Shown piece after piece: positions 13,253 to 30,350 of a stretch of 64,000 nt of DNA (position 1 is the stretch's first letter; each line of letters opens with the position of its first letter). Made by a program: the position numbers and the translations under genes. The DNA lies in the sequence record PZ445444.1; one strand, given 5' to 3'. This DNA comes from a phage. The notes below the pieces were generated by a model. The model saw only the letters and a program-made list of their open reading frames with translations. It was not told the origin of the DNA and ran no database searches.

Positions 13253-13267
13253 CACATAACTAACATA

Positions 13268-13296: not shown

Positions 13297-13314
13297 TATA
13301 AGGAGATCTGAAAA

Positions 13315-13757: not shown

Positions 13758-13827
13758 ACTTCATAGAACGGGAGGACGTGATGAACGAAGAAAACTGGGA
13801 TGTATAACTAACAGGAGGCCACTGCCC

Positions 13828-14025
13828 ATGATTTATCGAATCCGTGTAAGAGAAGATGCACCAGGCTGTTACTTTGACTGGCGTGGGTGGTGGTTTATCC
13901 ACCCAATGGATGGACTCACAGATAGAATGCTGGATGCTGCCCTTTATACAGATACCGACATAGAATATAATCTCTATCTGAAGGACGGTATAGATAACGG
14001 CCTGTTTGAAGCAATTCCTGTGTAA
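13828..14025 (+). CDS. hypothetical protein (65 aa)
   Basis: RBS AGGAGG; first gene of the putative operon. Confidence 0.5.
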   Translation: MIYRIRVREDAPGCYFDWRGWWFIHPMDGLTDRMLDAALYTDTDIEYNLYLKDGIDNGLFEAIPV

Positions 14026-14093
14026 GAGACTGTGATAGCTATGTTTTATGATCTTCCTGTAGCACCACCACCTGTTGAACCCGGAGAACTAAG

Positions 14094-14967: not shown

Positions 14968-14992
14968 CGACCATCTTCTGAGGTGATATAGT
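14964..14992 (+). promoter_or_regulatory. sigma70-like promoter
   Basis: TTGACG-N17-TATAGT. Confidence 0.55.
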
Positions 14993-15218
14993 TTCCACAA
15001 CAACTAAGAGAGGAGAGCACTGTGGAGACTAAAATCTTAATTCTTGCTGTGGTAGATACAACCGAAGGAGCTATATTCGAATCTGCAGGGGGGTATTTCT
15101 ACCTACCATACGGAAAAAGAACTTCCGAGCCAAGTAAAGATTCAATCCTCAAGGTGTTCCCGTGTGCTTTCTGGCTGGAGATTTTGGTATAAGATTGCAG
15201 AGGATTTGGGAGAGAATT

Positions 15219-15413
15219 ATGAGAAACAAGAAAGAGCTTTACTCTGGTGAGTGGATCAACGATCAACAGGTGGGAGAGGTAACCTGCTTCCGATGTTTTA
15301 CCAGGTACAATCTTAAAACTGCACCAAAAAGTGTTCCAAAGACTGATGGTTATTACATAAAAGAACCTCATTGCCCAAAATGTAAATGCCGATTATACTG
15401 GAGTAACCTGTAA
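15219..15413 (+). CDS. hypothetical Cys-rich protein (64 aa)
   Basis: ATG at 15219 after GGGAGAGAA; CxxC...CxxC pattern suggests a zinc ribbon. Confidence 0.5.
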   Translation: MRNKKELYSGEWINDQQVGEVTCFRCFTRYNLKTAPKSVPKTDGYYIKEPHCPKCKCRLYWSNL

Positions 15414-15417
15414 AAGA

Positions 15418-15445
15418 TTGACATCTGAAAACTGCAGTGTATAAT
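15418..15445 (+). promoter_or_regulatory. sigma70 consensus promoter
   Basis: TTGACA-N16-TATAAT. Confidence 0.6.
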
Positions 15446-15476
15446 ATATGCATAAACTAACAGAGAGTGATGTATT

Positions 15477-15668
15477 ATGGTAATTTTTAACCGGGATGGT
15501 ATCATAGTTAGACAGCACCCCTTCCTTGAATACTATCAAATTGAGCAATGGTGCTACGGGGATTGCAGTCACTCCTATGGGCAAAGTTGGGGATATCGTA
15601 CAGTTTTTGAATCCACAGACCTTGACAAAGTAAGACAGAAAGTTTTAGAACTTATTAACAACAAGTGA
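15477..15668 (+). CDS. hypothetical protein (63 aa)
   Basis: ATG start downstream of the promoter. Confidence 0.5.
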   Translation: MVIFNRDGIIVRQHPFLEYYQIEQWCYGDCSHSYGQSWGYRTVFESTDLDKVRQKVLELINNK

Positions 15669-15678
15669 GCATCGTGCC

Positions 15679-16011
15679 ATGGTAACATTGGAAAGACGTA
15701 AAGCTATCGCCGCCACACTGGCAGACATCTTTTGGGATTGCAACTTAAAAGATACCCGAAATTGTGGCGCATCTGTAGATGTATTATTCCCACGGCCCAC
15801 CATTGTTGCAATGGGCAACCTGCTCGATGTGGTATATGGAGCATGGGACAAGGAAGGTGGATTCTATATCTGGCAACCTGACTACGGGACCTGGAAAGAG
15901 GTTAGTGGTTCTGCGGACTTCACTCCTGCAGAGGCTAAAATGGATGGCTGGAAAATCTATGTCGGTAACGACATGAAGCTGAAAGGCGAGATTGTTTACT
16001 GGTTACCTTAA
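15679..16011 (+). CDS. hypothetical protein (110 aa)
   Basis: ORF in the co-directional small-gene array. Confidence 0.55.
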   Translation: MVTLERRKAIAATLADIFWDCNLKDTRNCGASVDVLFPRPTIVAMGNLLDVVYGAWDKEGGFYIWQPDYGTWKEVSGSADFTPAEAKMDGWKIYVGNDMKLKGEIVYWLP

Positions 16012-16031
16012 GAGAATGCAGGAGATAAGGT

Positions 16032-16277
16032 ATGAACAAAGGGTGGACATTTGTAGACGGCGTTAAAAACATGCCTCTAGGAAAGTATATTGTAGCCATG
16101 GCAGATGAGAATGGCAAGGTGGATTTCGGAGTTTGCGAGGTTGTTCTTGCAGGATCTGGTGACTATGCTCACAAAACTGGGATAATTAACGGTCATTTCT
16201 ACTTTGATTACAACCCTGTTGTGGCGTATATGGCTATGCCAGAGTTAGAGCTCCCAAAGGAGGGTGCAGATGTTTAA
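16032..16277 (+). CDS. hypothetical protein (81 aa)
   Basis: RBS GGAGA upstream of ATG. Confidence 0.55.
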   Translation: MNKGWTFVDGVKNMPLGKYIVAMADENGKVDFGVCEVVLAGSGDYAHKTGIINGHFYFDYNPVVAYMAMPELELPKEGADV

Positions 16278-16467
16278 GCTTAAATCTGCATGGAACATCG
16301 CTGTGGGGGACGAGATCCGTATCCCAGGTGGAAAGACCATTATGAAGATATCTCGTATCGAGTACGAAGGTGATCGTGTATTTCATATCTTTGCAGAGGA
16401 TGGTCGAGAAATTTATATACAGGCAGGCTCTCACATCTATATTCGTAAGAAAGGGGACGACAAATGA
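16264..16467 (+). CDS. hypothetical protein (67 aa)
   Basis: RBS AAGGAGG; overlaps neighbours at both ends. Confidence 0.5.
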   Translation: MQMFKLKSAWNIAVGDEIRIPGGKTIMKISRIEYEGDRVFHIFAEDGREIYIQAGSHIYIRKKGDDK

Positions 16468-16793
16468 CAGAGATCATCATTTCAACTGCAGGGTATGTGT
16501 TCCTGACAATCATTGCACTGACCATTCTGGTTGTGGTATATGGAATTGTTATTCTCCCTATTCTTGAGACAATTAGTTTGTGTCGGTGTTGGAGAAAGGC
16601 TTACGGTCCACAGCCGTGGAAGGACTGGCCCCACCTTGTGCACATAGCGTTCTCTTATGCTTATGATCACGCCAGCAGTGCATGCATAACCGGGTATCAC
16701 GCCCACAACTGGAGCTGGGAAGGGTTGAGGAAATGGAATGTTACAAAGACCATACCTCTGCGCATGTACAAACCTAAAAACAAAGACAGCTGA
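16464..16793 (+). CDS. hypothetical membrane protein (109 aa)
   Basis: N-terminal hydrophobic segment TAGYVFLTIIALTILVVVYGIVILPIL. Confidence 0.55.
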   Translation: MTEIIISTAGYVFLTIIALTILVVVYGIVILPILETISLCRCWRKAYGPQPWKDWPHLVHIAFSYAYDHASSACITGYHAHNWSWEGLRKWNVTKTIPLRMYKPKNKDS

Positions 16794-16799
16794 TACTTG

Positions 16800-17300
16800 A
16801 AAATTTCTGGCATATCAAGTGTAAGGAGGATTTCTAAAATGGATTTCCTCCTTTTGATATTTCACCGGGCTAGATATTTTAAAATTCTTAGAAAATCAGA
16901 AAATGGATCGAAAACTAAAATGGATTTTTCAGAGCAGGCACGACGAGATGAACCACTCATCCTATCGTCTGCACCATATTCCAGACCACCATTACAGATT
17001 TCCCGCACATGCTCACATCCTTCTACTAGAACTTCCCCCACTTACCCTTGACCTTTTATAGTAATAATCCAACCACTACCTTGAAGTTGTGGCGCAGCTT
17101 TCCAAGTACTCGATCTGTTTTTCGTTTCAAAGATTGAATTTTCTGAAAATTTTTCTCGATAAATTTCTCAGTACTCGATCTGTTTTTCGTTTTCTGAATC
17201 GGATTTTCTGGAAATCGTTCCGGCTCTCGACCTGAAATTTTTGGGGACGAAATCGATTTTTCGTTTTCAGAAATGGATTTTTAAAATTTCTATATGGGAA
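16800..17300. repeat. iteron-like direct-repeat region without convincing ORFs
   Basis: Repeated aaaatggat units and two copies of tactcgatctgtttttcgttt plus related cgatttttcgttttc. Confidence 0.5.
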
Positions 17301-17401
17301 TATTTTAGTGGATACTATTTTATAGGAAATTGTTACGGAGGGTAATTAGCGTGCTAATTAAATTTATTAAATGCGAGGAGTTCTCATTTAGAATTTTGAA
17401 T

Positions 17402-17480
17402 GATAATCATTCTCGTTTGCAGAATAACGGGCAGGCCCGGTGATTGTCTCCCGGCCCCTACTGCCCCGGCTTGTTATTAT
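17402..17480 (+). repeat. structured hairpin repeat element, copy 1
   Basis: gataatcattctcgtttgcag ... cccggtgattgtctccc ... ctgcccc; nested inverted repeats around conserved ttgtctccc. Confidence 0.5.
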
Positions 17481-17530
17481 AGTAACACACAGGACAAAGA
17501 AAGCAAGAAGTTTTTGCATAAATTTTTAGA

Positions 17531-17620
17531 CGATAATGATAATCGTTCTCATTTCATGCAGCGCCCATCCCCGGTGGTTGTCTCCCCCGTCACCGGTGCC
17601 TGCCGTCCTTTCGATAGGTA
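17531..17620 (+). repeat. structured hairpin repeat element, copy 2
   Basis: gataatcgttctcatttcatgcag ... ccggtggttgtctcccccgtcaccggtgcctgccgt. Confidence 0.5.
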
Positions 17621-17667
17621 TATTTTGCCACCTAGCGGGGCCGCTGTCAACACTTTTCAAAAAAAAA

Positions 17668-17682
17668 AAAAAATTTCTAACC
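17668..17682. repeat. A homopolymer tract (about 14-15 A)
   Basis: Uninterrupted run of A in a non-coding region. Confidence 0.8.
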
Positions 17683-17816
17683 TGATGCGCTGACCGCTGC
17701 AACCTGGCGGGGCCAGCCTGGCAGGGCCTAACTGACCAGGTAGGAGAGAATGAAGGCTTGCAAACCTGGTGGGCCTATGCTATAGGATAGATAACAATTG
17801 AAGAGGAGGTACAAAA

Positions 17817-17993
17817 ATGGAAGGTAATATGATCCCCCTGGAAAATGTAGCTATTAATGACGCTGAGGCTATCGCCCTGGTTGAAAAGGCTATGGCGGGA
17901 GCGTTGGAACATAAAGAAGAGTACGAAAAAATGATGGTTAACCTGGCAGGGGCGGCGGCTGGAGAATTCTACCCAAAAAATAATTTTAACTAA
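17817..17993 (+). CDS. hypothetical small protein (58 aa)
   Basis: ATG preceded by GAAGAGGAGG; below the ORF-track length cutoff. Confidence 0.45.
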   Translation: MEGNMIPLENVAINDAEAIALVEKAMAGALEHKEEYEKMMVNLAGAAAGEFYPKNNFN

Positions 17994-17996
17994 TGG

Positions 17997-18025
17997 TTGA
18001 CAGCTCGGACAGTTCTTGTTATTCT
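17997..18025 (+). promoter_or_regulatory. sigma70-like promoter
   Basis: TTGACA-N17-TATTCT. Confidence 0.45.
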
Positions 18026-18078
18026 TATCCTCGCAAGGTGAACAACACCACACCAATTAACAGAGAGGATAAAAAATC

Positions 18079-18276
18079 ATGAACGCCTACGGAATTAAAG
18101 TACGTCGCAACACTCGCCAGGTGGTCACCAATCAAGTGATTTGCCGGGTGGATGTAACCATCAACAACGGGCAAGGCCTTTATAAATTTCGTCGCGGTCA
18201 TAGCTATACCCTGCAACAGCTTAATCGTTGCGCCCTGACAAAAGGTCAGATCAACCACTGGTTTAATAAAAAATAA
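18079..18276 (+). CDS. hypothetical basic protein (65 aa)
   Basis: RBS GAGAGGA upstream of ATG. Confidence 0.5.
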   Translation: MNAYGIKVRRNTRQVVTNQVICRVDVTINNGQGLYKFRRGHSYTLQQLNRCALTKGQINHWFNKK

Positions 18277-18279
18277 GTA

Positions 18280-18308
18280 TTGACATATAGTCCGACACCA
18301 AATACACT
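18280..18308 (+). promoter_or_regulatory. sigma70-like promoter
   Basis: TTGACA-N17-TACACT. Confidence 0.5.
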
Positions 18309-18340
18309 AAAAGCACAAAAGACACTAAGAGGATAAAATC

Positions 18341-18739
18341 ATGAAAACCACTACCTTTAATTTTGATAATGCAGACTTTTCTTTTTCTGATGTCAAGAAC
18401 TGCCGCCGTGATCGTGGATTTTACAAGGCTTATAATCTGGTGGGCCTGGACGATGACAATAATTTGCACGAAGTAGCTGAGATCCGGTATTATGCCGCCG
18501 CCAGTGGTAACACTCACTACTGCGTGTTTTGGATTCACGACAACAAGAACAATAAGTACGGTTATACTGGCGGCAAGGCGAGCGGTCACGGTTACGATAA
18601 AGCTAACGCAGCACTTGAGAGCGCATTAAATGCTATGGGGATCACTGCCGACGGCTGGATCTACGAAGAAGAGTTTTTGTCGGCACTTGCTGACCACCTG
18701 GGCTATAAAAAGCACATTGTGACATGCGCCCACGAATAA
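18341..18739 (+). CDS. hypothetical protein (132 aa)
   Basis: RBS AAGAGGA upstream of ATG. Confidence 0.6.
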   Translation: MKTTTFNFDNADFSFSDVKNCRRDRGFYKAYNLVGLDDDNNLHEVAEIRYYAAASGNTHYCVFWIHDNKNNKYGYTGGKASGHGYDKANAALESALNAMGITADGWIYEEEFLSALADHLGYKKHIVTCAHE

Positions 18740-18745
18740 AAATCA

Positions 18746-18773
18746 TTGACACGCTGCAAAATTTAAGTAAACT
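18746..18773 (+). promoter_or_regulatory. sigma70-like promoter followed by GC-hairpin leader
   Basis: TTGACA-N16-TAAACT, then ggcgggaa-tgt-ttcccgcc hairpin before the RBS. Confidence 0.5.
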
Positions 18774-18822
18774 AGACACAAAAGGCGGGAATGTTTCCCG
18801 CCAGCACAAAGGAAAAAAGATC

Positions 18823-19218
18823 ATGAATAAGAACGTACGCCGCATCATGAACGAACTGGCAAACGATGAAAAAATTATTGACATGCATTTAGTCAACATT
18901 TGCCGCCGTTGTGTAACATATAACAACCGCGCCGCAAAAGCGCGTGAGATGAACGCAAAAGGCACCTTAAAGCCCTTTCAGGTGGTTGTAAAATCTATAA
19001 CCAGTGCAGCAGGCCAGGCGCATGACCACAACAACGGGAGCACTAATATTGATCCGTCTTACGTAATGAAACGGATCCGGACTTGCAAGAATAAAGAGCA
19101 GGTGTATAATGTCATAGACTGGTTGGACTCTATGGGCGATGTGGTTTACAATAGGTTTTCTGCAGCTATCGAGATCCAGCTTGACAGGTTGGACGGTAAA
19201 GTACTGAAAACTTACTAA
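18823..19218 (+). CDS. hypothetical protein (132 aa)
   Basis: ATG at 18823 after AAAGGAAAA; the track start at 18724 is upstream of the promoter. Confidence 0.55.
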   Translation: MNKNVRRIMNELANDEKIIDMHLVNICRRCVTYNNRAAKAREMNAKGTLKPFQVVVKSITSAAGQAHDHNNGSTNIDPSYVMKRIRTCKNKEQVYNVIDWLDSMGDVVYNRFSAAIEIQLDRLDGKVLKTY

Positions 19219-19220
19219 GA

Positions 19221-19266
19221 TTATTTTTAGATGGCCTTGACTTCAGGGCCATCAATAAAGTAAACT
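19221..19266 (+). promoter_or_regulatory. conserved hairpin element with TTGAC in the loop, copy 1
   Basis: ttatttttagatggccttgacttcagggccatcaataaagtaaac; about 10-bp stem; possible TTGACT-N18-TAAACT promoter. Confidence 0.45.
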
Positions 19267-19298
19267 AATCCCAGTTAAGCGAAAAAGGAGGCTTGAAG

Positions 19299-19418
19299 AT
19301 GAGCACTACACGCCAACACACAAAGGTAACGATTATCGTTTGCATCATTGGTTACATCCTGGCGCAAATGTTGATGGGTAGCGCCAATGATTTCGCAAAA
19401 TTTTTCTTAGACTTTTAA
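19299..19418 (+). CDS. hypothetical small hydrophobic peptide (39 aa)
   Basis: ATG preceded by AAGGAGG; product MSTTRQHTKVTIIVCIIGYILAQMLMGSANDFAKFFLDF has a single predicted membrane helix. Confidence 0.4.
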   Translation: MSTTRQHTKVTIIVCIIGYILAQMLMGSANDFAKFFLDF

Positions 19419-19446
19419 TTGACAAGCTAACTTAAATCAGTATAAT
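19419..19446 (+). promoter_or_regulatory. sigma70 consensus promoter
   Basis: TTGACA-N16-TATAAT. Confidence 0.6.
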
Positions 19447-19498
19447 ACTAAGCACATAAACGGGAAAACTTCCCAGAACACCAAAAGGAGAAAACATT

Positions 19499-19849
19499 AT
19501 GAATACTTCCATCACTATGACCGCCGAAGAAAAAGCCCTGCAGATCGCCGCTCTGAAAAAACAGATTGCAGAACTTGAAGACAAGATCGACAATTTTGAA
19601 ATCGACGAAGACAAGTACGACGATAAATATGATGAATGGTTAGACGAGATCTACGGCGAAATCATGATCGGAAACATTTCTTTTCTTCCGTCGCGTATCC
19701 TCAAGGAGCTAGATCCTATCGCTTACCGCTGCGGATTTAGCGACTACATCGACAGCCTGGATATTGAGGACGATGAAGAATACCAGGAATTACAGACAGA
19801 GCTCGAAGAAGTGAAAGAAGAGCTTGCAGAACTGGAAGAAAACGAGTAA
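19499..19849 (+). CDS. hypothetical acidic coiled-coil protein (116 aa)
   Basis: RBS AAGGAGA; heptad-like E/K-rich segments. Confidence 0.6.
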   Translation: MNTSITMTAEEKALQIAALKKQIAELEDKIDNFEIDEDKYDDKYDEWLDEIYGEIMIGNISFLPSRILKELDPIAYRCGFSDYIDSLDIEDDEEYQELQTELEEVKEELAELEENE

Positions 19850-19851
19850 AT

Positions 19852-19898
19852 TTATTTTTAGATGGCCTTGACCCCAGGGCCATCAATAAAGTAAACTT
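19852..19898 (+). promoter_or_regulatory. conserved hairpin element, copy 2
   Basis: tttatttttagatggccttgaccccagggccatcaataaagtaaac. Confidence 0.45.
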
Positions 19899-19938
19899 TA
19901 GACTGTTAACACTTAACCAATACAGAGGAGTTAAAACC

Positions 19939-20184
19939 ATGGCAGCACTAATCACCAAATATTATGCCCCTACCAACACCAAAAGCGCCCGTATCATGGT
20001 AAAAGGCTTCGGACGTAAAAAGGTGTACACCTGGGATTATGCCTTAGACACGGAAGACAACTACACCAACGCAATGACCGATTTTATTAATGAACTAAAT
20101 AAGCAGATCTTGACAAGTTATAAAGTGACCGATATTGCTTATATAGGTGAAGGCGGGATCTGTTTTGTAGGCATTGTGAAATAG
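19939..20184 (+). CDS. hypothetical protein (81 aa)
   Basis: RBS GAGGAG upstream of ATG. Confidence 0.55.
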   Translation: MAALITKYYAPTNTKSARIMVKGFGRKKVYTWDYALDTEDNYTNAMTDFINELNKQILTSYKVTDIAYIGEGGICFVGIVK

Positions 20185-20189
20185 TTATT

Positions 20190-20235
20190 TTTTCGGTGGT
20201 CCTGGTTGCAGGGCCATCTATAAAGATAATTTATT
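20190..20235 (+). promoter_or_regulatory. conserved hairpin element, diverged copy 3
   Basis: ggtggtcctg-gttg-cagggccatc forms a 10-bp stem with wobble pairs, followed by tataaagataat. Confidence 0.4.
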
Positions 20236-20258
20236 AACACCATGAAAGGAGAAAGTAC

Positions 20259-20612
20259 ATGATCAGCGGGGCAAGTTTTATTATTGGCGCTATTGCTACG
20301 GCTTTAATTGTAAATAAGATCCAGGATAAAAAGGAAAGAGGAAGTACCGCCCTTGCAGAATATCCATTTTGGGCATTCAACGATAACGAAGATTATATTA
20401 TAAAGTATAAAAATAAAGAAGGTGACCAAGTAACACCGCGACCGATCCCGGCTTACAAAATGCAGGAAACACTATACCGCCTGGAGGCGGGAGGCGCAAA
20501 AATTGTAGACTTTTGGGGATACGACCACACAGATCAGGAAGTTATAAAGCGCCGTATCCGGGCTATTCAGGCCAATATTGAAGTTAGCAAGGGGGGAATA
20601 TATGAAGATTAA
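20259..20612 (+). CDS. hypothetical protein with N-terminal membrane helix (117 aa)
   Basis: RBS AAGGAGA; N-terminus ISGASFIIGAIATALIV. Confidence 0.55.
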   Translation: MISGASFIIGAIATALIVNKIQDKKERGSTALAEYPFWAFNDNEDYIIKYKNKEGDQVTPRPIPAYKMQETLYRLEAGGAKIVDFWGYDHTDQEVIKRRIRAIQANIEVSKGGIYED

Positions 20613-20799
20613 TTTTGAGAAGATTGTAAAGCGATCTCATGATTCCGAAGAGCTGCCGGAACGACGCCAGCGTAACAATAAACTGAATAAGCCAAAAAGA
20701 TTTGGAAAGATCTGGCGAAATCATTATGATCGTAAATTGCCTGGCCTACTTTTGGAACGTGAACGACAGGCAGAACGATACCGCCATAAAGACAAATAA
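20602..20799 (+). CDS. hypothetical basic protein (65 aa)
   Basis: ATG at 20602 after AAGGGGGGA; overlaps the upstream gene end. Confidence 0.5.
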   Translation: MKINFEKIVKRSHDSEELPERRQRNNKLNKPKRFGKIWRNHYDRKLPGLLLERERQAERYRHKDK

Positions 20800-20807
20800 C
20801 AACCAAC

Positions 20808-20834
20808 GCCCCGCCATTGTGCGGGGCTTTTTAT
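20808..20834 (+). terminator. intrinsic terminator
   Basis: gccccgc-cattgt-gcggggc followed by tttttattt. Confidence 0.7.
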
Positions 20835-20980
20835 TTCTATCCTACAAATAGCGCCCCTGGTTGGCCCTGTAAGCGCCAAAAAGGCCCCACCTATGCAATC
20901 GCCCCCCTTTAACCTGAAAACATCGCTTAGGGCCGTTTTATGGCGTTAAAAATATCATTGACAGTGATTTTATTTAAAGC

Positions 20981-21008
20981 TTGACATCTTAAACAGGTTA
21001 GCTATACT
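20981..21008 (+). promoter_or_regulatory. sigma70-like promoter (second of tandem TTGACA boxes)
   Basis: TTGACA-N16-TATACT; another TTGACA lies about 25 nt upstream. Confidence 0.6.
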
Positions 21009-21040
21009 AACCACATCAAAGAGAGAAAGGAGTAAACGCC

Positions 21041-21301
21041 ATGCGTAAATTAAAAAATTTTGATAAAGTTGATGTTGTCCTGAATAATTTTTACTACTGC
21101 AACAACAAGGCCATTTGGTGGCGTGATAGTTCCACCGATAAAGTTAAAGCTCGCTTTCTCCAAGGGCACTGGCAAGGCCGTCCAGTGATTAAAATACTGG
21201 GGCAACTGGTAGCGTTTAAAAATTGCCGCCGTGTTGATGACGTTGAAGAGATCTTGAACATTTTACGCCACAATAATTTAAAAAATAGTGTTGACAAGTA
21301 A
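21041..21301 (+). CDS. hypothetical protein (86 aa)
   Basis: RBS AAAGGAG upstream of ATG. Confidence 0.55.
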   Translation: MRKLKNFDKVDVVLNNFYYCNNKAIWWRDSSTDKVKARFLQGHWQGRPVIKILGQLVAFKNCRRVDDVEEILNILRHNNLKNSVDK

Positions 21302-21318
21302 ATCTCGATAAGTATACT
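21291..21318 (+). promoter_or_regulatory. sigma70-like promoter with GC-hairpin leader
   Basis: TTGACA-N16-TATACT, then ggcgggaa-aac-ttcccgcc hairpin. Confidence 0.6.
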
Positions 21319-21375
21319 TAAACACACAGGCGGGAAAACTTCCCGCCACTAACAAAGAAAATAGGAGAAAATATC

Positions 21376-21999
21376 ATGACCACCGTTAACATTACCACAG
21401 GTTACAATTTATCTTTCGACGTGCTGACCGACGAACAAAAAGAAAAAGCTATTGAAATGGTCCGCGAAAGAGAAGAACACAGCGGGGATAATTTTTTTGC
21501 AGAAAGTGTAATTGAACACTATAAAGAATATGTCTTTCCAGAGTACGGCCTTGAAGATACCGAAGTACGTTGGTCCGGCTTTTGGTGTCAAGGCGATGGC
21601 GCGTCAATCAGTGCTGAAAACGTGGATTTAGAAAAATTCTTGCGTAAAGTAAAGGCCCTGACCAAGTTCCGATCAATTCGTCACTTGTTCGGCACAATGC
21701 ACGATGGCGAGTTATCAGCCAGTGTTGAACGTATCCCGTTTAGCCATTATCATCACGAAAACACAATAGGAGGGTGCATCGATACTAATTGGCTAGACCT
21801 GACCACCAAGCAAGAGGACAAAGTTGAAGAGCTGGAAGAGCTGATCACCGAGACGGTACGGGAGCTATCCCGCAAGGTTTACGTAGACCTGGAGGAGGCC
21901 TATCTTGAACAGTTTACTACCGAAAACCTGATCGGCCTTATTGAAGCCAATGATTGGCGGTTTGATGTGGATGAATATGGGGAGATGAGTTTTTCATAA
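21376..21999 (+). CDS. hypothetical acidic protein (207 aa)
   Basis: RBS AGGAGA; no confident motif. Confidence 0.6.
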   Translation: MTTVNITTGYNLSFDVLTDEQKEKAIEMVREREEHSGDNFFAESVIEHYKEYVFPEYGLEDTEVRWSGFWCQGDGASISAENVDLEKFLRKVKALTKFRSIRHLFGTMHDGELSASVERIPFSHYHHENTIGGCIDTNWLDLTTKQEDKVEELEELITETVRELSRKVYVDLEEAYLEQFTTENLIGLIEANDWRFDVDEYGEMSFS

Positions 22000-22007
22000 A
22001 TAAAGTG

Positions 22008-22035
22008 TTGCAATAATCTAAAAACCTGCTATATT
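22008..22035 (+). promoter_or_regulatory. sigma70-like promoter
   Basis: TTGCAA-N16-TATATT, followed by ggggc...gcccc leader hairpin. Confidence 0.5.
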
Positions 22036-22088
22036 AAAAACTCAAGGGGCGAGATGACTTGCCCCCACAAAACAAAGAGGAAAACATC

Positions 22089-22469
22089 ATGAAAAACACT
22101 ACTAAAGCTATTGACACCGTTATGTTTAACCTGGTTACATTCCGTGAAGATATGAAAGATCTTCCACGTGAAACAGTGTGCGACCATATCGAAAACTATC
22201 GCAAACTAATCAAAGAGTTGCCTTTAAAACGTGACCAGTACGCGGCTAACGCTATGCTTAACGCCATGATCAAAAAGATGATCCAGTGTGATTTAACTCT
22301 GGCCTATGATTATGCAGGCGGTCGTTTTGCAGTATACAATCAGCCCGTGCCCGGTATGAGCACCACCGAAGAATTGCACGCGTTAAATCTGAAACAAGAT
22401 GTATGGGATAACATGCCCCGCGTGGTGGTGTGGGCAGAAAGCGGAAAGATTTACGGCGATAATTTTTAA
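22089..22469 (+). CDS. hypothetical protein (126 aa)
   Basis: ATG at 22089 after AAAGAGGAAAA. Confidence 0.55.
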   Translation: MKNTTKAIDTVMFNLVTFREDMKDLPRETVCDHIENYRKLIKELPLKRDQYAANAMLNAMIKKMIQCDLTLAYDYAGGRFAVYNQPVPGMSTTEELHALNLKQDVWDNMPRVVVWAESGKIYGDNF

Positions 22470-22533
22470 TCAGGTAACAGGCGGCATATTTGCCGCCTTA
22501 TTGTTAAACAGAACTGCAAAAGAGGTACATAGA

Positions 22534-22905
22534 ATGGAATTTATTATTTTGGCTGTAGTAGTTGCCTTGTTCAACGCCTGGATCGCTGGCAAGATGGGTA
22601 GATCCGCTTTTTTATGGTTTATTATATCTATTTTCCTGGGGGTGGTTGCAACTATTGTACTTGTTATCCTTGCAATTGTTGACAAGGGGAATAATAGAAA
22701 GGGTAAAGTATTTTCAGACCTGTACGACGCTCAAACATTTGTCAACGCCTACTACAGCGATCTTCCAGTCTCCCTACGTTGCAGCCTTGCACAACAGGTT
22801 TTCGATGAAGCTAAAACCAGAGATCACGCCCATGAGATTTGTTTAACTGAGGCGGATCGCCTATTTGAGAGGAATAGAAAATATGTGGACCAGCCGTTTA
22901 AATAA
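22534..22905 (+). CDS. hypothetical membrane protein (123 aa, two predicted helices)
   Basis: ATG at 22534 after AAGAGG; hydrophobic stretches FIILAVVVALFNAWIA and FLWFIISIFLGVVATIVLVILAIV. Confidence 0.55.
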   Translation: MEFIILAVVVALFNAWIAGKMGRSAFLWFIISIFLGVVATIVLVILAIVDKGNNRKGKVFSDLYDAQTFVNAYYSDLPVSLRCSLAQQVFDEAKTRDHAHEICLTEADRLFERNRKYVDQPFK

Positions 22906-23124
22906 TGCCACGTTAATTAACCCCTTTAGTGAAGATTTGAAGCCAGCCGCCTGGCGGGATGGATTCAATAACGAAAGCTTTATTTTCAGGCCTGATCTTA
23001 AGGAATTTTATAACAATGGATCGAACAACGACAGAGATAATTTTTCTTGTAATGTGCGTGGTGATAATACTCCTGGGGGCCATTGCAAACCACGTCACTG
23101 CTAACAGGAGGAAAGGGGGAGACG

Positions 23125-23244
23125 ATGACACCTAAGGATAAGCCCCGCACCGATAAGGCGCGCCGTGTTATGGTATGGCTTGAGATCATCGCCCTTGAAA
23201 TATTGTTAGGCGTAGGGATGTATTTTATCGCTGTAAGTAATTGA
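23125..23244 (+). CDS. hypothetical small membrane peptide (39 aa)
   Basis: ATG preceded by AGGAGGAAAGGGGGAG; hydrophobic C-terminal half. Confidence 0.35.
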   Translation: MTPKDKPRTDKARRVMVWLEIIALEILLGVGMYFIAVSN

Positions 23245-23296
23245 TAACGGCCCCGATCCCTGGGGCCTAACTTTTCAAATTTTTTTCTCCCTGAGT

Positions 23297-23325
23297 GTTG
23301 CAATCCGATCCAGAATATGGATAAT
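23297..23325 (+). promoter_or_regulatory. sigma70-like promoter
   Basis: TTGCAA-N17-ATAATA. Confidence 0.4.
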
Positions 23326-23384
23326 AACAATCAACGGGGAGACACTCCCCACCGCATAGACAAAGTTCCAAAAGGAGAAACAAA

Positions 23385-23586
23385 ATGAGCAACAATATCC
23401 GCGTTATTAACTTCAAAAAAGAAGAAAAAAATTGCCGTGCTGATTGACGGTCAAGAAATCTTTAAAGGTGATTATGAAGATCATCAAACGGCGATTAGTA
23501 TCACTCGCGTGATTGGTTACCATAATTTTTACCCTCAAGGCGCTGAGGCAGCAGTAAAACGAATTAAAGAGATTGTAGGCCTGTAA
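23385..23586 (+). pseudogene. small gene interrupted by a +1 frame change at an A7 run
   Basis: ATG 23385 after AAAGGAGAAA; frame stops at 23447 just after the A7 run at 23425-23431; a downstream frame runs uninterrupted to 23586. Removing one A gives a continuous 66-aa ORF. Confidence 0.45.
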
Positions 23587-23588
23587 AA

Positions 23589-23636
23589 TTTATTTTTAGA
23601 TGGCCTTGACTCCAGGGCCATCAATAAAGTAAATTT
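23589..23636 (+). promoter_or_regulatory. conserved hairpin element, copy 4
   Basis: tatttttagatggccttgactccagggccatcaataaagtaaat. Confidence 0.45.
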
Positions 23637-23677
23637 AAACCCTGTTAAAATAATCAGTGCAAAAAGGAGTAATGATC

Positions 23678-23977
23678 ATGTTTATCCAGGCTAATAATCT
23701 TTATTTCTTTGATGGTCAGATCGTAGACGGCGTGGAGGTGGAAATCACCGGGTGCCCTGGCGGTCAGGTTATGACTTTTCGGAATAATGCCTTTGATGAT
23801 TCTCATATCGTTATGAGAATGGAAGTTAGTAAGCTGGATGACAAGAAAACACTCATTGATTATTCCGTGAAAGATCATCCAGACTACCACATGATCTATG
23901 GTGATTTGTGCATTGTTGACCGTGACAAGGTGGGCGGCATTGTGATCGCTATTGTGAACGATGTTTTCTCAAACTAA
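23678..23977 (+). CDS. hypothetical protein (99 aa)
   Basis: ATG at 23678, 8 nt after AAGGAG. Confidence 0.55.
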   Translation: MFIQANNLYFFDGQIVDGVEVEITGCPGGQVMTFRNNAFDDSHIVMRMEVSKLDDKKTLIDYSVKDHPDYHMIYGDLCIVDRDKVGGIVIAIVNDVFSN

Positions 23978-23994
23978 TTTCAGCAGGTGATTTT

Positions 23995-24345
23995 ATGAAA
24001 GTAAAACTATATTACCTTAATGAGCTTAACCCCCTTGCCCAGGTCCGCGCCCTGGCTAATACCTTGATTTGTGAGAAATCTGTATATTGTGTTGAGCTTA
24101 ACTCCATGCGTGAACGTCTCAAAGGTGGTTACTTTGACATCCATGCTGCAATCAACGGCCTGAATATGGAATTTATCCGCTTACGTAACAGCCGCCAGAA
24201 TCTGGCAAGAATGGAACAAGATCCGGCCCACCTTCGTAAGCTGGTTATTGAAAATCATCTAATGTTTAATGCCGATGGTGATTATTACCATTTTCACCGT
24301 AAACGCTGGTACCGTAGCGGCAATATAGGAAAGAATGCAAAATAA
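23995..24345 (+). CDS. hypothetical protein (116 aa)
   Basis: ATG start; no recognisable motif. Confidence 0.55.
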   Translation: MKVKLYYLNELNPLAQVRALANTLICEKSVYCVELNSMRERLKGGYFDIHAAINGLNMEFIRLRNSRQNLARMEQDPAHLRKLVIENHLMFNADGDYYHFHRKRWYRSGNIGKNAK

Positions 24346-24382
24346 GGCCCCTGGCAGGGCCTGCAGCGATATAATCACATAA

Positions 24383-24414
24383 AGGCTATGCGGTTGCATA
24401 GCCTTTATTATTTT
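24383..24414 (+). terminator. intrinsic terminator
   Basis: aggctatgc-ggtt-gcatagcct followed by ttattatttt. Confidence 0.6.
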
Positions 24415-24463
24415 GGCGTTACAGCGGCCCCCAAGGCGCTTAAAAAAATTTTTAAAGAAGTAC

Positions 24464-24492
24464 TTGCATCAAGTCCTACAATATGGATAATA
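24464..24492 (+). promoter_or_regulatory. sigma70-like promoter (weak)
   Basis: TTGCAT-N17-ATAATA. Confidence 0.4.
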
Positions 24493-24550
24493 AAGGGTGT
24501 CGGGGGGGTGAGGCCTCCAATCATTAACCGGATAGATAGGAGTTAAAACC

Positions 24551-24835
24551 ATGGCTATTGTTACCGTTGGCGATGTAGTAGAAATGGAAGCCAAATACTT
24601 AAAAGCTGGTATGCATATCATACGGAATGATCAAGAATTGTTATTAACCATGGTTGAATATAATCCCGGTCAGGATTATCCAAGCACTGACTACTTTTTC
24701 CAGTATGTTGATGAAGAATTAAAAGAGGATGAGGCTTATCAGGGTGAATTTTGTAATTTCTTTTGCCCTGATGAGGTTGTAAAAGTTATCTATCAACCTG
24801 GCGTACCTTTCCCGCTGCACGCTATCAACAAATAA
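24551..24835 (+). CDS. hypothetical protein (94 aa)
   Basis: RBS TAGGAG upstream of ATG. Confidence 0.55.
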   Translation: MAIVTVGDVVEMEAKYLKAGMHIIRNDQELLLTMVEYNPGQDYPSTDYFFQYVDEELKEDEAYQGEFCNFFCPDEVVKVIYQPGVPFPLHAINK

Positions 24836-24890
24836 ACCTGGCGGGGCCGAAAAGGCCCCCAATTATGAAAATAAAGAGAGGCAAATCATC

Positions 24891-25124
24891 ATGATGGAAC
24901 AAATTAAACGCGCCGAGGCTATTAATGGCAACGTGATCTATTTTGTCAGCAAAAACGAAAAAGGCGTACCCTATGCGGCGGTAATAGTACAGCCTGACGG
25001 CGATTATTGGTGTACTGTGTACGGCGCTTATTCTTTTGGGCGTCCAGTGCATGATAAAATTTTGAAAGTAGCGAACCCTACCGGGAAAAATATCACAGCA
25101 GAAAAATTTTTTGAAAATAGTTGA
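24891..25124 (+). CDS. hypothetical protein (77 aa)
   Basis: RBS AAAGAGAGG upstream of ATG. Confidence 0.5.
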   Translation: MMEQIKRAEAINGNVIYFVSKNEKGVPYAAVIVQPDGDYWCTVYGAYSFGRPVHDKILKVANPTGKNITAEKFFENS

Positions 25125-25149
25125 CATGACCATATAAGACTGTAGTATA
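25121..25149 (+). promoter_or_regulatory. sigma70-like promoter with GC-hairpin leader
   Basis: TTGACA-N16/17-TAGTAT, then ggggc-aa-gcccc hairpin. Confidence 0.5.
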
Positions 25150-25195
25150 TAAATCAAAGGGGCAAGCCCCACCAACCACAAAGAGGATAAAAATC

Positions 25196-25375
25196 ATGGC
25201 TATTATTGCAAAGACTGAGATCGTAGGCTTGGATTCTATTCTCCTCGCATATGAGGAAGCTATAGAAATGTATGTGGTTTCCTATGGTGAGTATATCCGT
25301 GAATATAAATCTATTGATCTGGCTTTTGAATGTTATATTCGCCAGGTTAATAAAGCGTACGATGATTATCGTTAA
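25196..25375 (+). CDS. hypothetical small protein (59 aa)
   Basis: ATG after AAAGAGGATAAAAA; below the ORF-track cutoff. Confidence 0.45.
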   Translation: MAIIAKTEIVGLDSILLAYEEAIEMYVVSYGEYIREYKSIDLAFECYIRQVNKAYDDYR

Positions 25376-25465
25376 AATAGTTTGAAAACAAACAACCATC
25401 TTACAAAGCATAATACATAAGGCGGTGGAATGGTCCGCCACCTGGAACAAGAAGAGGAAAACAAA

Positions 25466-25570
25466 ATGAAACAGAAATTAATTGATGCGGTGATCCTGGT
25501 TATTGCCCTGGGTATTGGCCTGATTGCAACCATGGCTAATGTGATCTTGTCTTCCAACGGTATCGGGTGA
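25466..25570 (+). CDS. hypothetical small membrane peptide (34 aa)
   Basis: ATG after AGAAGAGGAAAA; product MKQKLIDAVILVIALGIGLIATMANVILSSNGIG. Confidence 0.35.
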   Translation: MKQKLIDAVILVIALGIGLIATMANVILSSNGIG

Positions 25571-25579
25571 GGTTGGCAA

Positions 25580-25795
25580 ATGATCACTAACAAAACAGGC
25601 AAAACGGAATTTTTACGCAACTTACAGATCGGCAAGCCTGAGATCTGGTATTGCACTAAAACACCACGTGACGAAATGAAAGACTTCACCGCCACGCTGC
25701 AACGGGTAAAGATATCCATCACGCAGAAAAAGGCCTTGATAGTGGTGGAAGGTGAGATCCCTCAAACCGTTGTTATAGTTGAGCGTACAGCATAG
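25580..25795 (+). CDS. hypothetical protein (71 aa)
   Basis: ATG start closely following the small peptide ORF. Confidence 0.5.
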   Translation: MITNKTGKTEFLRNLQIGKPEIWYCTKTPRDEMKDFTATLQRVKISITQKKALIVVEGEIPQTVVIVERTA

Positions 25796-25886
25796 TTTAA
25801 TTTATACCGATACCCGAAAATTAACCAACAAAGCATAAACAGGCGGTTACCGCCGCCTTAAACGTAGCAGAAAGAGGATAGACACA

Positions 25887-26171
25887 ATGAAAAAGATGAT
25901 CGCAGTGGTTGCCCTGGTTGTTGGACTTAATGCGCCTGTAATGGCTAAAGAGCTGGCAAAAGAGGTTAATCTAACGGATATTCATGCCGTCAATCGAATC
26001 GGGGTTACTTATCGCTTATGCCTTGCCGCTAAAACTTTTAAGGACGGCACGACAGAGTACTACGGATTCGAAGGTGTCCGGTGCGGTGAACTTGCTCGCG
26101 ACCTTAAGGAAGATCCAGACCTGGAGGATCTGCCCATCACCGTAAACGGGAAAACTTACGTAAACCGTTAA
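25887..26171 (+). CDS. hypothetical secreted protein (94 aa)
   Basis: RBS AAAGAGGA; N-terminal signal-peptide-like MKKMIAVVALVVGLNAPVMA. Confidence 0.55.
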   Translation: MKKMIAVVALVVGLNAPVMAKELAKEVNLTDIHAVNRIGVTYRLCLAAKTFKDGTTEYYGFEGVRCGELARDLKEDPDLEDLPITVNGKTYVNR

Positions 26172-26173
26172 CC

Positions 26174-26308
26174 ATGATAAAGATAATCATCACCTTGGGG
26201 ATTGTGGCGGGATCGCTGGCGCTCTTTCTCCTTATGGTTAGGTATGTGCTGATCGGTATTGTCCTGGTAGTCAGTGATCTATTGGAAACGGTTGGCACCT
26301 TGTTTTAA
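26174..26308 (+). CDS. hypothetical small membrane peptide (44 aa)
   Basis: ATG 2 nt after the upstream stop; product almost entirely hydrophobic. Confidence 0.35.
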   Translation: MIKIIITLGIVAGSLALFLLMVRYVLIGIVLVVSDLLETVGTLF

Positions 26309-26320
26309 AGAGCGGTAAAA

Positions 26321-26512
26321 ATGAATATCGAACAAGTTAGAAAGGTATTGGCGGTACTGCGTTATCATAATCATAGAAAGGTCATAGACGATCCTGATTA
26401 TGTCGATTCAAGCCTGGAAGGGGATACACTACAAGCCATAAGTAACATGCAAGAATTGCTAAAGCGCATGACAGAGAAAAACCGACCGGACTACATAGGC
26501 GAAAAAATATAA
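26321..26512 (+). CDS. hypothetical protein (63 aa)
   Basis: ATG start; followed by a terminator. Confidence 0.5.
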   Translation: MNIEQVRKVLAVLRYHNHRKVIDDPDYVDSSLEGDTLQAISNMQELLKRMTEKNRPDYIGEKI

Positions 26513-26526
26513 TCCTTATAAACTAC

Positions 26527-26556
26527 AAAACAGGGCTTGCAATGGTCCTGTTTTTT
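26527..26556 (+). terminator. intrinsic terminator (imperfect stem)
   Basis: aaaacagggc ... ggtcctgtttt followed by a T-run. Confidence 0.45.
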
Positions 26557-26571
26557 GTTATACTTGTTTCA

Positions 26572-26622
26572 CGGCAGGCACCTGGTGACGGGGGGAGACA
26601 ATCACCGGGTGTGCCTGCTATA
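26572..26622 (-). repeat. structured hairpin repeat element, copy 3 (inverted relative to copies at 17.4-17.6 kb)
   Basis: Reverse complement reads ccggtgattgtctccccccgtcaccaggtgcctgccgt, near-identical to the 17531-17620 copy. Confidence 0.5.
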
Positions 26623-26640
26623 TAAAAACTATAAAAACCG

Positions 26641-26669
26641 TTGACATCTGCCAGGTGGTGGGGTAGCAT
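26641..26669 (+). promoter_or_regulatory. sigma70-like promoter
   Basis: TTGACA-N17-TAGCAT. Confidence 0.5.
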
Positions 26670-26724
26670 TTATCTCGAAGGGGGCAAAAGCGCCCACACA
26701 ACAACCGGAAGAGAGGAAAACGCC

Positions 26725-26997
26725 ATGTTAAGCTGGATTAACCAAGAAGTTGAATCACGTTTCAATGCTATTTGGGATCTCATCGAAAAAGAGGACGGAA
26801 CATCAAGCCCTTATCTCAATAATCTTGAATTCCATTTCGTGGAAGCGATGAACGCAGAACATGATCACGAAGGTGGTGCGGATGAATTCGCTAAAGGATA
26901 TGGCTTCAACAATGCCAACGAAATGATCGAGGCGGTTGTACTCCAGGCTGAGGAAGATTATCAATTAAAAACGCTTGAATTCTGCCGCCGTAAGTAA
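26725..26997 (+). CDS. hypothetical acidic protein (90 aa)
   Basis: ATG at 26725 after GAAGAGAGGAAAA. Confidence 0.55.
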   Translation: MLSWINQEVESRFNAIWDLIEKEDGTSSPYLNNLEFHFVEAMNAEHDHEGGADEFAKGYGFNNANEMIEAVVLQAEEDYQLKTLEFCRRK

Positions 26998-27059
26998 TAA
27001 GATAATGACACAGGCCAAAAGGCCCACTAAACAAAAACCACATAAAGAGGAAAAACATC

Positions 27060-27323
27060 ATGAAACGCCTTGATCAGCTCAAATTAGTTCAATATATGGC
27101 TTATCGTGTTCTTGAAGTCCAGAAAGGTAGCAAAAAAGAGGTTTGCGAGAAAGCTTATAAGATCTTCACTCGCAAAAAAGATGATTGGATGTTACGCCAG
27201 ACCAAAAAAGCCGATATCTTGGGGTACCTGGAAGAAGAGATCCGGCTTGAAGAGCAAGAAGAGATCCGCCGCAGTGAGGCAGATTATCAGGCAGCTTGGG
27301 AAAACTGGATGAATAACAAATAA
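27060..27323 (+). CDS. hypothetical protein (87 aa)
   Basis: RBS AAAGAGGAAAAA upstream of ATG. Confidence 0.55.
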   Translation: MKRLDQLKLVQYMAYRVLEVQKGSKKEVCEKAYKIFTRKKDDWMLRQTKKADILGYLEEEIRLEEQEEIRRSEADYQAAWENWMNNK

Positions 27324-27388
27324 TACAACAAGTTACATGGTCAGGGGCAATAAAGCCCCTTGATCACATAAAAATTATGCCATCCTTG

Positions 27389-27417
27389 GTTGACAGGGAT
27401 CGGCAGTTTTGCTATAT
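27389..27417 (+). promoter_or_regulatory. sigma70-like promoter
   Basis: TTGACA-N17-TATATT. Confidence 0.6.
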
Positions 27418-27467
27418 TCTTTTTTGAAGGGAAGTTGTAAGAAAATTAACTAAGAGGTAAAAACACC

Positions 27468-27887
27468 ATGAACATTAAATCTAATAATCCGGCATATAGC
27501 TTTGATAACGCTTTTTGTCACGGTCCGGCGGCGAAAGGATTCGAAATCGATGGTAAACTAGTTATTGTCAATGTTGACGGGGAAGAGGTTGCAGTATATC
27601 CGGTGGCAGACGTTAAAAGCCGTCTACAATGCCGCATCGATGTTACCGCCTACCAGCTTGATCCGGTCCGGGTAGTTGCCCTGGTCCTGGAAGAAGAAAT
27701 TAAAGCAATGCACCACAGCAACAAGTTTATTGGTGACGCTCAAGATAATATGAAGGTGTGCCGCCATAAAGTTAATGAAGTGCTTAAAGAATATGGCTTT
27801 AAAGATCTGATGATCAAACGTGAGGAAAAATTCCGCTACCGTAACGACCTGGCAAATCGGATTTTTGAAATATACGAATCATTATAA
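27468..27887 (+). CDS. hypothetical protein (139 aa); last gene of the plus-strand block
   Basis: RBS AAGAGG; followed by a strong terminator. Confidence 0.6.
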   Translation: MNIKSNNPAYSFDNAFCHGPAAKGFEIDGKLVIVNVDGEEVAVYPVADVKSRLQCRIDVTAYQLDPVRVVALVLEEEIKAMHHSNKFIGDAQDNMKVCRHKVNEVLKEYGFKDLMIKREEKFRYRNDLANRIFEIYESL

Positions 27888-27905
27888 TTTCTTAACTGAA
27901 TTATC

Positions 27906-27932
27906 AAGGGGCTTAAAGGCCCCTTTCTTTTT
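27906..27932 (+). terminator. intrinsic terminator closing the plus-strand block
   Basis: aaggggc-ttaaa-ggcccctt followed by tctttttgt. Confidence 0.7.
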
Positions 27933-27939
27933 GTCTGCT

Positions 27940-30350
27940 CTTCTCCTACCATAAACGGCCCTACCTGGCAAGTGGAATAATTGACTAGCCATCAATCCCA
28001 CATACTGTACAAATATACATTGAAAATAACTATTGCATAATTTTTCATTGTGTGGTAGCAGGGCCATTTTTACCCGTTTTCTCTCCCAAAAGTGCACGTA
28101 ATGCCGCTATTGCACAAATTTTAACCTGATGCACATCTCCAATATCTTGTCAACAACTAAAAATCTTTATAAGTCATACACTTACACAGCATCGAAAGCG
28201 TGTTCTACGCGAAAAATAGAGTATAACTATAGCCGCCAGATCTCAGAATTCACGTACGCACGCCATTCTATAGCCTGCAAAGTATTTATTCCAACCACAG
28301 AATAAAGGAATAGTCAATACCTGCATAAAATAATTATTCGTGTAAACTGCATAACATAAATCAGCTCAGGTGTCAACATTTTTCGTAAACAGCCCGAAAT
28401 TATCACGATGAGTTATCATAAACAGAGAAATCTTTAGTCGTCTAATGTTTACTGTACATTACTATACTGACTGGAATCATTAGATGACTAAGAGAAAGAT
28501 AAGAAATAATTAATAATGTAATTGTTTTACCTGTAACAATAAGGCAACTATGCAAACGAATGGCATGGCGCGACGGAGTCGCGACATAATATAAAAGCAG
28601 TAACCATCACCCCCGTGATAGTTTGTCTGCAAACTATTAATCAGATCATAGTTGCCTTGTATTTAGTTAATCATGACATAACAAGCAAGGCAACTATAGA
28701 TCTTATAATAGTTGCCCTGCTTTTATATTATGTCATGCTAATTATAATCAGTGCGATTATTGTCATGTATAATTATTGTCATGCAAACGAATGGCATGGC
28801 TGATTATCGGTGTGTAAACAGTCAATCATGTAAATGGTTAGCATGTGAACAATCAGGAATGTAAACAATCCAGTGTGTAAACTAATAGGTGTGTAAAAGT
28901 GTCATGTTGTGTCAGTTAGGTCACATTATGTCAGACAAGTTTTTCTCCTCTTTGTCAAGTGCTGCATGAAAAATTTACAATCTTGTATGGTAGCATTTTT
29001 GCGGCCCTGTTTACATTCAGGAGTGTATGTATAATCCTTGGTGTGTGGGCGTTTAGACGTCTAGACGGTCAGAAGTCTGCAGGTCAATATCTAATCTATT
29101 GGCTGCTAACTATATCCCCCACAAATAATAAGAAATATAATTGTTATGTGCGTAAACAGTAACCCATGTTATCAATCCCTGTATGTATCGCCAGTGGTGC
29201 GCATAATGGGTATTATGTTAAATTGCCCGTAATGATAACTATTCTCACAATGATAGGTATTCTCATTCACTCCCACAAGATAGGTTGCAAATGTTGTGCC
29301 ATTGTGTGAACGGCCTCACCTATTAATTTGCCTCACTGCCTCGATATTTGAGAATTGTTATAAGAATGAGAATGATTCCCATTTCGTCCGCCTAGCAGCA
29401 CTCCTGTAGGACAAGCACAAAATCGTGGCATAGCTGGACCTGTTCAGATATTTCTGGCTGGCTCTTCAGGTCTGTGTGGGAAAAGCCAACCCCCTCCGGC
29501 GGCGGGGAGGGTGTCAATTAAAAAATTTACGGGGTATATGAAGCGCTCTTCAGGTAAGGCATGTACTATGGGATGAAACCCTCTTCGGGCAATGATATTT
29601 GTGGGTGTGATATTTGCTGGAAAGCCAGATATGACGGGACTCCCGGCGGGGCAGGGGTAGTACAGACAGGGAAAATATGGGGATGTAGTTGGGTGAATTG
29701 ATCGGGCAGGTAGAGTATGGAATATGTTACAAGTATGTTAAATATGGAGGGTGAATATCTGCAGGATTTGTGTGTAAAATCAAAGACTTAAGTAGTGTTG
29801 TGGTATTTTCTATAAATAATTCAAGTTTAATAGGTAATATTTGTCTCTATCCACTTTGTGTGGTAAACAAATTCAAATGAGATTGGTTTACAAGTGTATA
29901 CATAATATACAAATTAAAGATACAAGAAACCCCCCTCCCCCTTCGGCTACCATTCACCTTTTCCTCTGACTGGTACTTAAACACTTATTCAGACTCTTCA
30001 GGTTATCACCCATATACCATATGGCAGTGACTGGTGTCCTCCGGCCCCTCTTTCGTCACCCGTCCGCTTCGCCATGCTAATGCCATAGCCAAATGTTCGG
30101 TTGTTCACCCTGTTCACTCAGGTGTATCTCCATACCCCTTCAAACCGAAGAGAACAGAAAACCCGAATTACTCGGTAAAAGAAAAGAGAAGAACTTAATT
30201 TTATCAGGATAGGCAAGAATGTCAAGGCATGACTGCTCACTAAACAAGCAAACAGTCATGTGTGGGAGGTAAGTGATTGTGGTGGTAGGAAATTTAGTTG
30301 AAAGATGTGTTATAGGTGCTTCCAGCACTTTAGCCTGGCAGCTAATTGTG
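27940..30350. repeat. 2.4 kb AT-rich non-coding region between convergent gene blocks
   Basis: No ORF with an RBS; 20-bp direct repeat atgcaaacgaatggcatggc (28551-28570 and 28781-28800); ggcaactata/tatagttgcc palindromes; six tgtRaac repeats (28810-28900); four ctcttcagg repeats (29460-30650). Confidence 0.6.

Follow-up and report, generated by a model that had tools for sequence, protein, structure and literature searches.

Genes broken or bridged at homopolymeric runs are known from several systems. Spontaneous null alleles of dispensable phage accessory genes carry a +/-1 change in a short run, found in one lineage, while the gene is intact and selected elsewhere, secondary decay is absent and the tract can be hit independently. 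Programmed +1 frameshifting of the prfB (RF2) type uses an in-frame stop or hungry codon and an upstream Shine-Dalgarno-like stimulator, and phage −1 frameshifts, such as those of the lambda G/GT tail chaperone and T7 gene 10A/10B, use X_XXY_YYZ-type heptamers. In phase-variable contingency loci, a tract length that depends on the lineage switches a gene off. Transcriptional slippage is described for Thermus dnaX, for A/T runs of IS elements and for endosymbiont poly(A), the known bacterial cases involving runs of ~9 or more, or helper structures. With the RNA polymerase of E. coli, slippage in reporters was undetectable as long as runs stayed below T7 or A8, and poly(A) gave no slippage by deletion (PMC6260861, Koscielniak et al. 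2018).

We compared with these systems a small gene that is split between two frames at positions 23385-23586 (+ strand) of a 64,000-nucleotide stretch of phage DNA (PZ445444.1), hereafter called the window. The ATG at 23385-23387 opens a frame of 20 codons closed by the TGA at 23445-23447, and a run of seven A residues (A7, 23425-23431) lies just 5′ of this stop. Across the lesion the initial frame reads GAA (23424) AAA AAT TGC CGT GCT GAT TGA (23445-23447), giving the product MSNNIRVINFKKEEKNCRAD*, and the +1 frame, ...IAVLIDGQEIFKGDYEDH...KEIVGL, continues to the TAA at 23584-23586. Deletion of one A fuses both frames into a 66-aa ORF, which reads EEK-IAVLIDGQEIFK across the lesion. The ATG at 23385, the A7 run at 23425-23431, the stop at 23447 and the end at 23586, all given in the original prediction made from the letters alone, were confirmed on re-reading the sequence.

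The locus falls into several parts, all on the + strand. The 5′ gene fragment (23385-23447) comprises 20 codons, 15 of them wild type and 5 out of frame, followed by the TGA, residues 1-15 being those of the intact protein of relatives. The lesion itself is the A7 run, where the relatives carry A6 within the codons GAA AAA ATT, encoding E-K-I. The 3′ gene part (23432-23586) holds residues 16-66 in the +1 frame, from the last two bases of Ile16, together with the TAA, and its DNA is 100% identical to that of rV5_ev147, nom, Phage 203 and naam. A 49-aa ORF with a GTG start 8 nt before the upstream stop (23437-23586) is reported by gene callers when the gene is broken. The Shine-Dalgarno region AAAGGAGAA (23371-23379, including GGAG at 23374-23377), read directly from the sequence, lies 7 nt before the ATG and is identical in relatives. 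Further upstream, a consensus scan yielded a sigma-70-like promoter candidate, TTGCAA-16-GATAAT (23298-23325), in a region whose hit count is no higher than in shuffles.

The joined 66-aa protein had been proposed as plausible, and this was borne out by a match to PHROG 12347, a family of unknown function, over 66/66 positions (E=1.6e-49, residues 1-66, 66-position profile) and by the 201-nt CDS annotated as intact in all relatives inspected. It is this homology, and not statistics, that shows the two ORFs to belong together and not to be paired by chance. In its present form in the window, the gene specifies no more than residues 1-15 of the PHROG 12347 protein. Among 15 sequences (10 distinct), the variable sites were distributed over codon positions 1/2/3 of the + frame as 5/2/38, and 9/66 residues varied. 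This codon-position pattern, together with the PHROG match, indicates that the intact frame is the selected state and is held by purifying selection. An antisense ORF of 68 aa (23331-23538, minus strand), intact in relatives and broken here, was rejected as the real gene because the 5/2/38 pattern fits the + frame, because the + ORF has a Shine-Dalgarno sequence and an ATG, and because all records annotate the + ORF.

A homologue search returned 8 clusters at 90% identity, all of them rV5-like. Natural lesions occur elsewhere in this family: the C-terminus is frameshifted in phiWec193 (P0006) and in an ENA contig (P0005), and a further member (P0008) has lost 15 residues in frame. The 66-aa gene is therefore dispensable. 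A Pfam search with the 66-aa protein gave no match above threshold. The AlphaFold2 model predicted a beta-beta-beta-alpha-alpha arrangement of three strands followed by two helices with moderate confidence (pLDDT 73.7), and a Foldseek search of the model against the PDB gave no significant neighbour (best E-value 0.45).

Judged by its sequence, the window belongs to a Vequintavirus, an rV5-like E. coli myophage. A 601-base query around the site matched 121 phage records, with rV5_ev147, rV5_ev156 and nom as the best at 99.8%, all of them Vequintavirus; over 24 kb the best record was nom, only 96.7% identical, so the genome of the window itself is absent from this set of records. In every relative inspected, the annotation shows promoter-proximal small genes on the window's + strand, and a 201-nt CDS is placed exactly at the split ORF. 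The region was also 94-98% identical to 17 GenBank records named 'Campylobacter phage' (e.g. MG065635 and MG065653-MG065682; host Campylobacter jejuni), which look mislabelled or contaminated.

The A7 allele was found in this isolate only. An 86-nt query containing A7 matched 119 phage records, none of them at >=99% identity, and in 60/60 listed rows, sampled evenly down the ranking of the 119, the span in the record was one base shorter; the A6 version of the same query matched 30 phage records exactly. Apart from their A6, rV5_ev147, nom, Phage 203 and naam match the window at 100% over 23370-23600, so that the sequence flanking the lesion carries no other change and the downstream frame is undamaged. 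Among the fetched loci, 34 had A6 and the 66-aa protein, one (MiataMamis) had an interrupted run and the 66-aa protein, three had A5 and an 18-aa product, and A7 occurred in the window's own isolate only; a single 66-aa frame was thus present in 35/39 fetched loci, including all 34/34 A6 loci. MiataMamis, the most diverged relative, reads GAT GAA AAG CTG at the tract and keeps the protein, so the run is incidental to the E-K-I/L codons and is not a conserved signal. When IMG/VR and JGI metagenomes were scanned with a pattern that let the tract vary in length, 3 loci were found, all A6 and none A7, and a look-up of the 49-aa product, made in search of A7 elsewhere, recovered A5 contigs and not A7.

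These A5 contigs are three ENA metagenome contigs (L013, L014 and L015) in which the tract, at about position 435, has five A residues and the gene is cut to 18 aa. Identity among the three is 99.9-100%, and that to the window ~95.7%; their sample names and assembler styles differ. They are one wild phage lineage, and a real mutation at this tract is thus demonstrably possible. The A5 tract shifts the frame in the direction opposite to A7 and leaves the downstream frame undamaged, and gene callers report the 49-aa product in these contigs. The independent occurrence of A5 at the same tract makes the A6 tract a recurrent frameshift hot spot, and an undamaged downstream frame, seen in the A5 lineage as in the window, is consistent with alleles that are young and mildly deleterious. 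Immediately 5′ of the ATG, the A5 lineage carries one A more.

To see whether homopolymer indels are in excess, as in a poor assembly, we compared the whole window with rV5_ev147 and nom and built an alignment of five genomes, in which the window was joined by ev147, nom, naam and RudolfGeigy. In well-aligned context the window had 5 unique indels of 1-2 nt against 1-8 in the other genomes, which is no gross excess; only the frame-breaking subset stands out. Three events in the window (8719, 23425 and 39594-39597) break coding-strand ORFs that all four relatives keep whole, compared with none in nom, none in RudolfGeigy, one in naam (C-terminal only) and ~4 in ev147. At 8715-8719, G4 has become G5 in a + strand gene (8590-8818) where ev147 has G4 and the others GGGA. 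This lesion cuts a conserved 75-aa gene to 55 aa, matching PHROG 12623 at positions 1-44 of 75, and breaks its coupling to the following gene, whose start overlaps it (ATGA at 8815); 114/114 matching phage records are one base shorter there, and the truncated 55-aa product is also present in the Logan assembly of SRR26885545. At 39594-39597, CC, as found in the four relatives, has become CCCC in a minus-strand gene (39192-39655), breaking a conserved gene of 153-156 aa near codon 19, whose annotation varies among relatives between 'putative structural protein' and 'HNH homing endonuclease'. Two further changes are specific to the isolate, an expansion of A6 to A7 at 24442-24448, which is intergenic between genes of 116 aa and 94 aa, and a gain of AA (A to AAA) at 27915.

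The long A tract at 17668-17682, to which the A7 run had been linked, is A15 in the window and A6-A10 in the four relatives, where it is followed by T3-T5; its length differs in every genome compared, and it is reproduced in the Logan contig. It sits at the 3′ end of a 97-aa ORF of doubtful status (17400-17693), within sequence that repeats CCTGGCGGGGCC motifs. The link held only in that both runs are isolate-specific expansions, and it gives no evidence of a regulatory use. Homopolymer-length differences among the five genomes concentrate in window positions 16900-30000, an early-gene and intergenic-rich part, and are almost absent from genes of replication and nucleotide metabolism.

Considering these observations together, we regard the lesion as probably a genuine and recent frameshift mutation, that is, an isolate-specific, non-programmed loss-of-function allele. 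The Logan assembly of SRA run SRR26885545 contains one contig (contig_1, L025; 90 kb) that is 100% identical to window 1-18757 and another (contig_11, L046; 51 kb) that is 100% identical to window 22051-27335, including the A7, where no gene was called. By coordinate arithmetic, the two contigs abut near window 20393-20414, where the Logan assembly breaks; as the window spans this junction, it is a different assembly of the same isolate, and the presence of A7 in both indicates that the extra A is in the reads and is not an assembler slip. Agreement was perfect over the 24 kb compared, and a k-mer assembly that carries the A15 tract in this way suggests accurate and consistent reads, so that the base at the site is most likely read correctly. 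A literature search for the run accession SRR26885545 gave no match. The homopolymer sequencing error offered as one option in the original prediction is weakened by the A7 of the Logan assembly and keeps a minor share of the probability: a systematic read-level miscall common to both assemblies, in a phage that truly has A6 and an intact gene, is rather unlikely. It would fit a lesion that lies in a homopolymer and is unique among >150 related sequences, and the two assemblies were probably built on the same reads. Two more run expansions that break a frame are likewise unique to this genome, which makes three broken conserved genes in 64 kb where the three best-annotated relatives have 0, 0 and 1, and each of the only two A7 runs of the window (23425 and 24442) is an A6 that has expanded in this isolate alone. 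Comparable oddities occur in records of the genus, with several unique homopolymer indels in ORFs of ev147 and split gene calls in rV5. It is mainly for the expansion-only pattern, nearly all unique small indels of the isolate being run expansions, that we keep some probability on a read error, as such a one-sided pattern could be the signature of a technology. Against a miscall stand the identity of the k-mer-based assembly, the unexceptional number of unique small indels, two unique events of +2 (CC to CCCC and A to AAA), which are unusual for homopolymer miscalls, and the independent wild lineage with a frameshift at the same tract.

Readings that give the split gene a function, whether by slippage, phase variation or re-initiation, are improbable even when taken all together. 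The proposal that the run is a slippage-prone site used for regulation was not supported, given an out-of-frame state in 0/119 phage records, an unconserved run and the absence of a stimulator. A functional slippery site, transcriptional or at the level of a +1 tRNA-Lys slip that restores the 66 aa, or a phase-variable switch with A6 as ON and A5 or A7 as OFF, is very improbable, although several features would permit it. As with prfB, a +1 shift is needed and the A run would allow perfect re-pairing of the P-site tRNA, a slip of Lys-tRNA from AAA (23427-29) to AAA (23428-30) giving the exact wild-type protein, and the downstream frame is without further damage. As in known transcriptional slippage, a sense-strand A run lies in the coding region, and an mRNA shortened by one A or lengthened by two (A6 or A9) would restore the frame and yield the exact or a near-exact wild-type protein. 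Tract lengths of 5, 6 and 7 are all found in nature and, as in contingency loci, differ between lineages and switch the gene off. However, the locus differs from each of these systems. The A-site codon after AAA is AAT (Asn), neither a stop nor a rare, hungry codon, the upstream sequence AAAAAAGAAG has no GGAGG-like (Shine-Dalgarno-like) element, and the homologues have a single frame; a programmed +1 frameshift was rejected, the two-frame arrangement being unconserved and the shift site and stimulator absent. The 69 nt downstream gave an RNA fold of z=-1.6, which is not significant (13/200 shuffles fold as well), and a stimulatory downstream structure was accordingly rejected. The in-frame heptamer A_AAA_AAT is a textbook −1 site of the X_XXY_YYZ type, but a −1 slip there (equivalent to A8) gives KLPC* and ends after 4 codons, short of the downstream ORF, and a 66-aa early gene is unlike the tail chaperone and capsid genes of those systems; a −1 programmed frameshift was rejected on that basis. 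A transcriptional slippage site was likewise rejected on run length, as A7 is unconserved and below the threshold of the E. coli enzyme (PMC6260861), and a sense-strand A7 that needs a one-base deletion is the least favourable case for slippage. Decisively, programmed sites are conserved out of frame, whereas this tract is in frame everywhere else in the phage records and is broken in the diverged MiataMamis. We take it that rV5-like phages rely on the host polymerase. A phase-variable locus was rejected because A6 was found in 34 loci, A5 in one lineage (3 contigs) and A7 in this isolate only; six or seven residues are too few for phase variation at a high rate, one length is shared by 34/38 independent loci, and OFF alleles that are rare singletons or single lineages are as expected under mutation-selection balance.

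Partial function by termination-reinitiation, from the TGA at 23445-47 to the GTG at 23437, producing a 49-aa C-terminal fragment, is also hard to credit. In its favour, the GTG is in the correct frame, 8 nt before the stop, and the same 49-aa product was called in the A5 contigs, but no Shine-Dalgarno sequence precedes it and the Logan contig has no gene call there. From the predicted three-stranded sheet, the fragment would be missing strand one and the greater part of strand two (E5-10 and E15-20; pLDDT 73.7), and the 49-aa form shows no evidence of selection. Least probable of all, by our estimate, is a slippage-prone Vequintavirus switch in which OFF alleles (A5, A7) circulate and revert or leak, tuning the dose of a putative host-directed 66-aa protein; if it were true, the leak would pass through a +1 slip of tRNA-Lys or polymerase stuttering.

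If the lesion is a genuine mutation, as we favour, ordinary replication slippage at the hot spot would most likely have inserted one base, turning A6 into A7 at codons 14-16 of a conserved and non-essential 66-aa early gene (PHROG 12347). Translation from the ATG at 23385 would then end after 20 codons, and the remainder of the gene would be untranslated, or at most weakly re-initiated at the GTG at 23437, with no recoding mechanism involved; the allele would most likely be null. The absence of further change in the flanks is what is expected of a young deleterious allele. Compared with the spontaneous null alleles of dispensable phage accessory genes, the split gene shows no essential difference, sharing the +/-1 change in a short run of one lineage, the intact and selected gene elsewhere, the lack of secondary decay and the independent hit at the tract (A5); the two cases differ at most in that the extra base here may, less probably, be a read error.

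The event is therefore an ordinary one of an already known kind, a null allele or, less likely, a read-level error. The locus would best be annotated as a frameshifted copy (a pseudogene, or a gene needing resequencing) of the conserved 66-aa PHROG 12347 gene, and its annotation as two ORFs or as a recoding site is unwarranted. For studies of early-gene function in rV5-type phages, it shows the gene to be dispensable and its A6 tract to be a recurrent frameshift site, and it draws attention to two other broken genes of this isolate. In the original rV5 record (L039, DQ832317.1), two small genes, uninterrupted in other genomes, are each called as two pieces, one at 6770-6969 (30+36 aa, against 65 aa elsewhere) and one at 14186-14487 (32+68 aa, against 99 aa elsewhere), which suggests frameshifts or sequencing errors there too.
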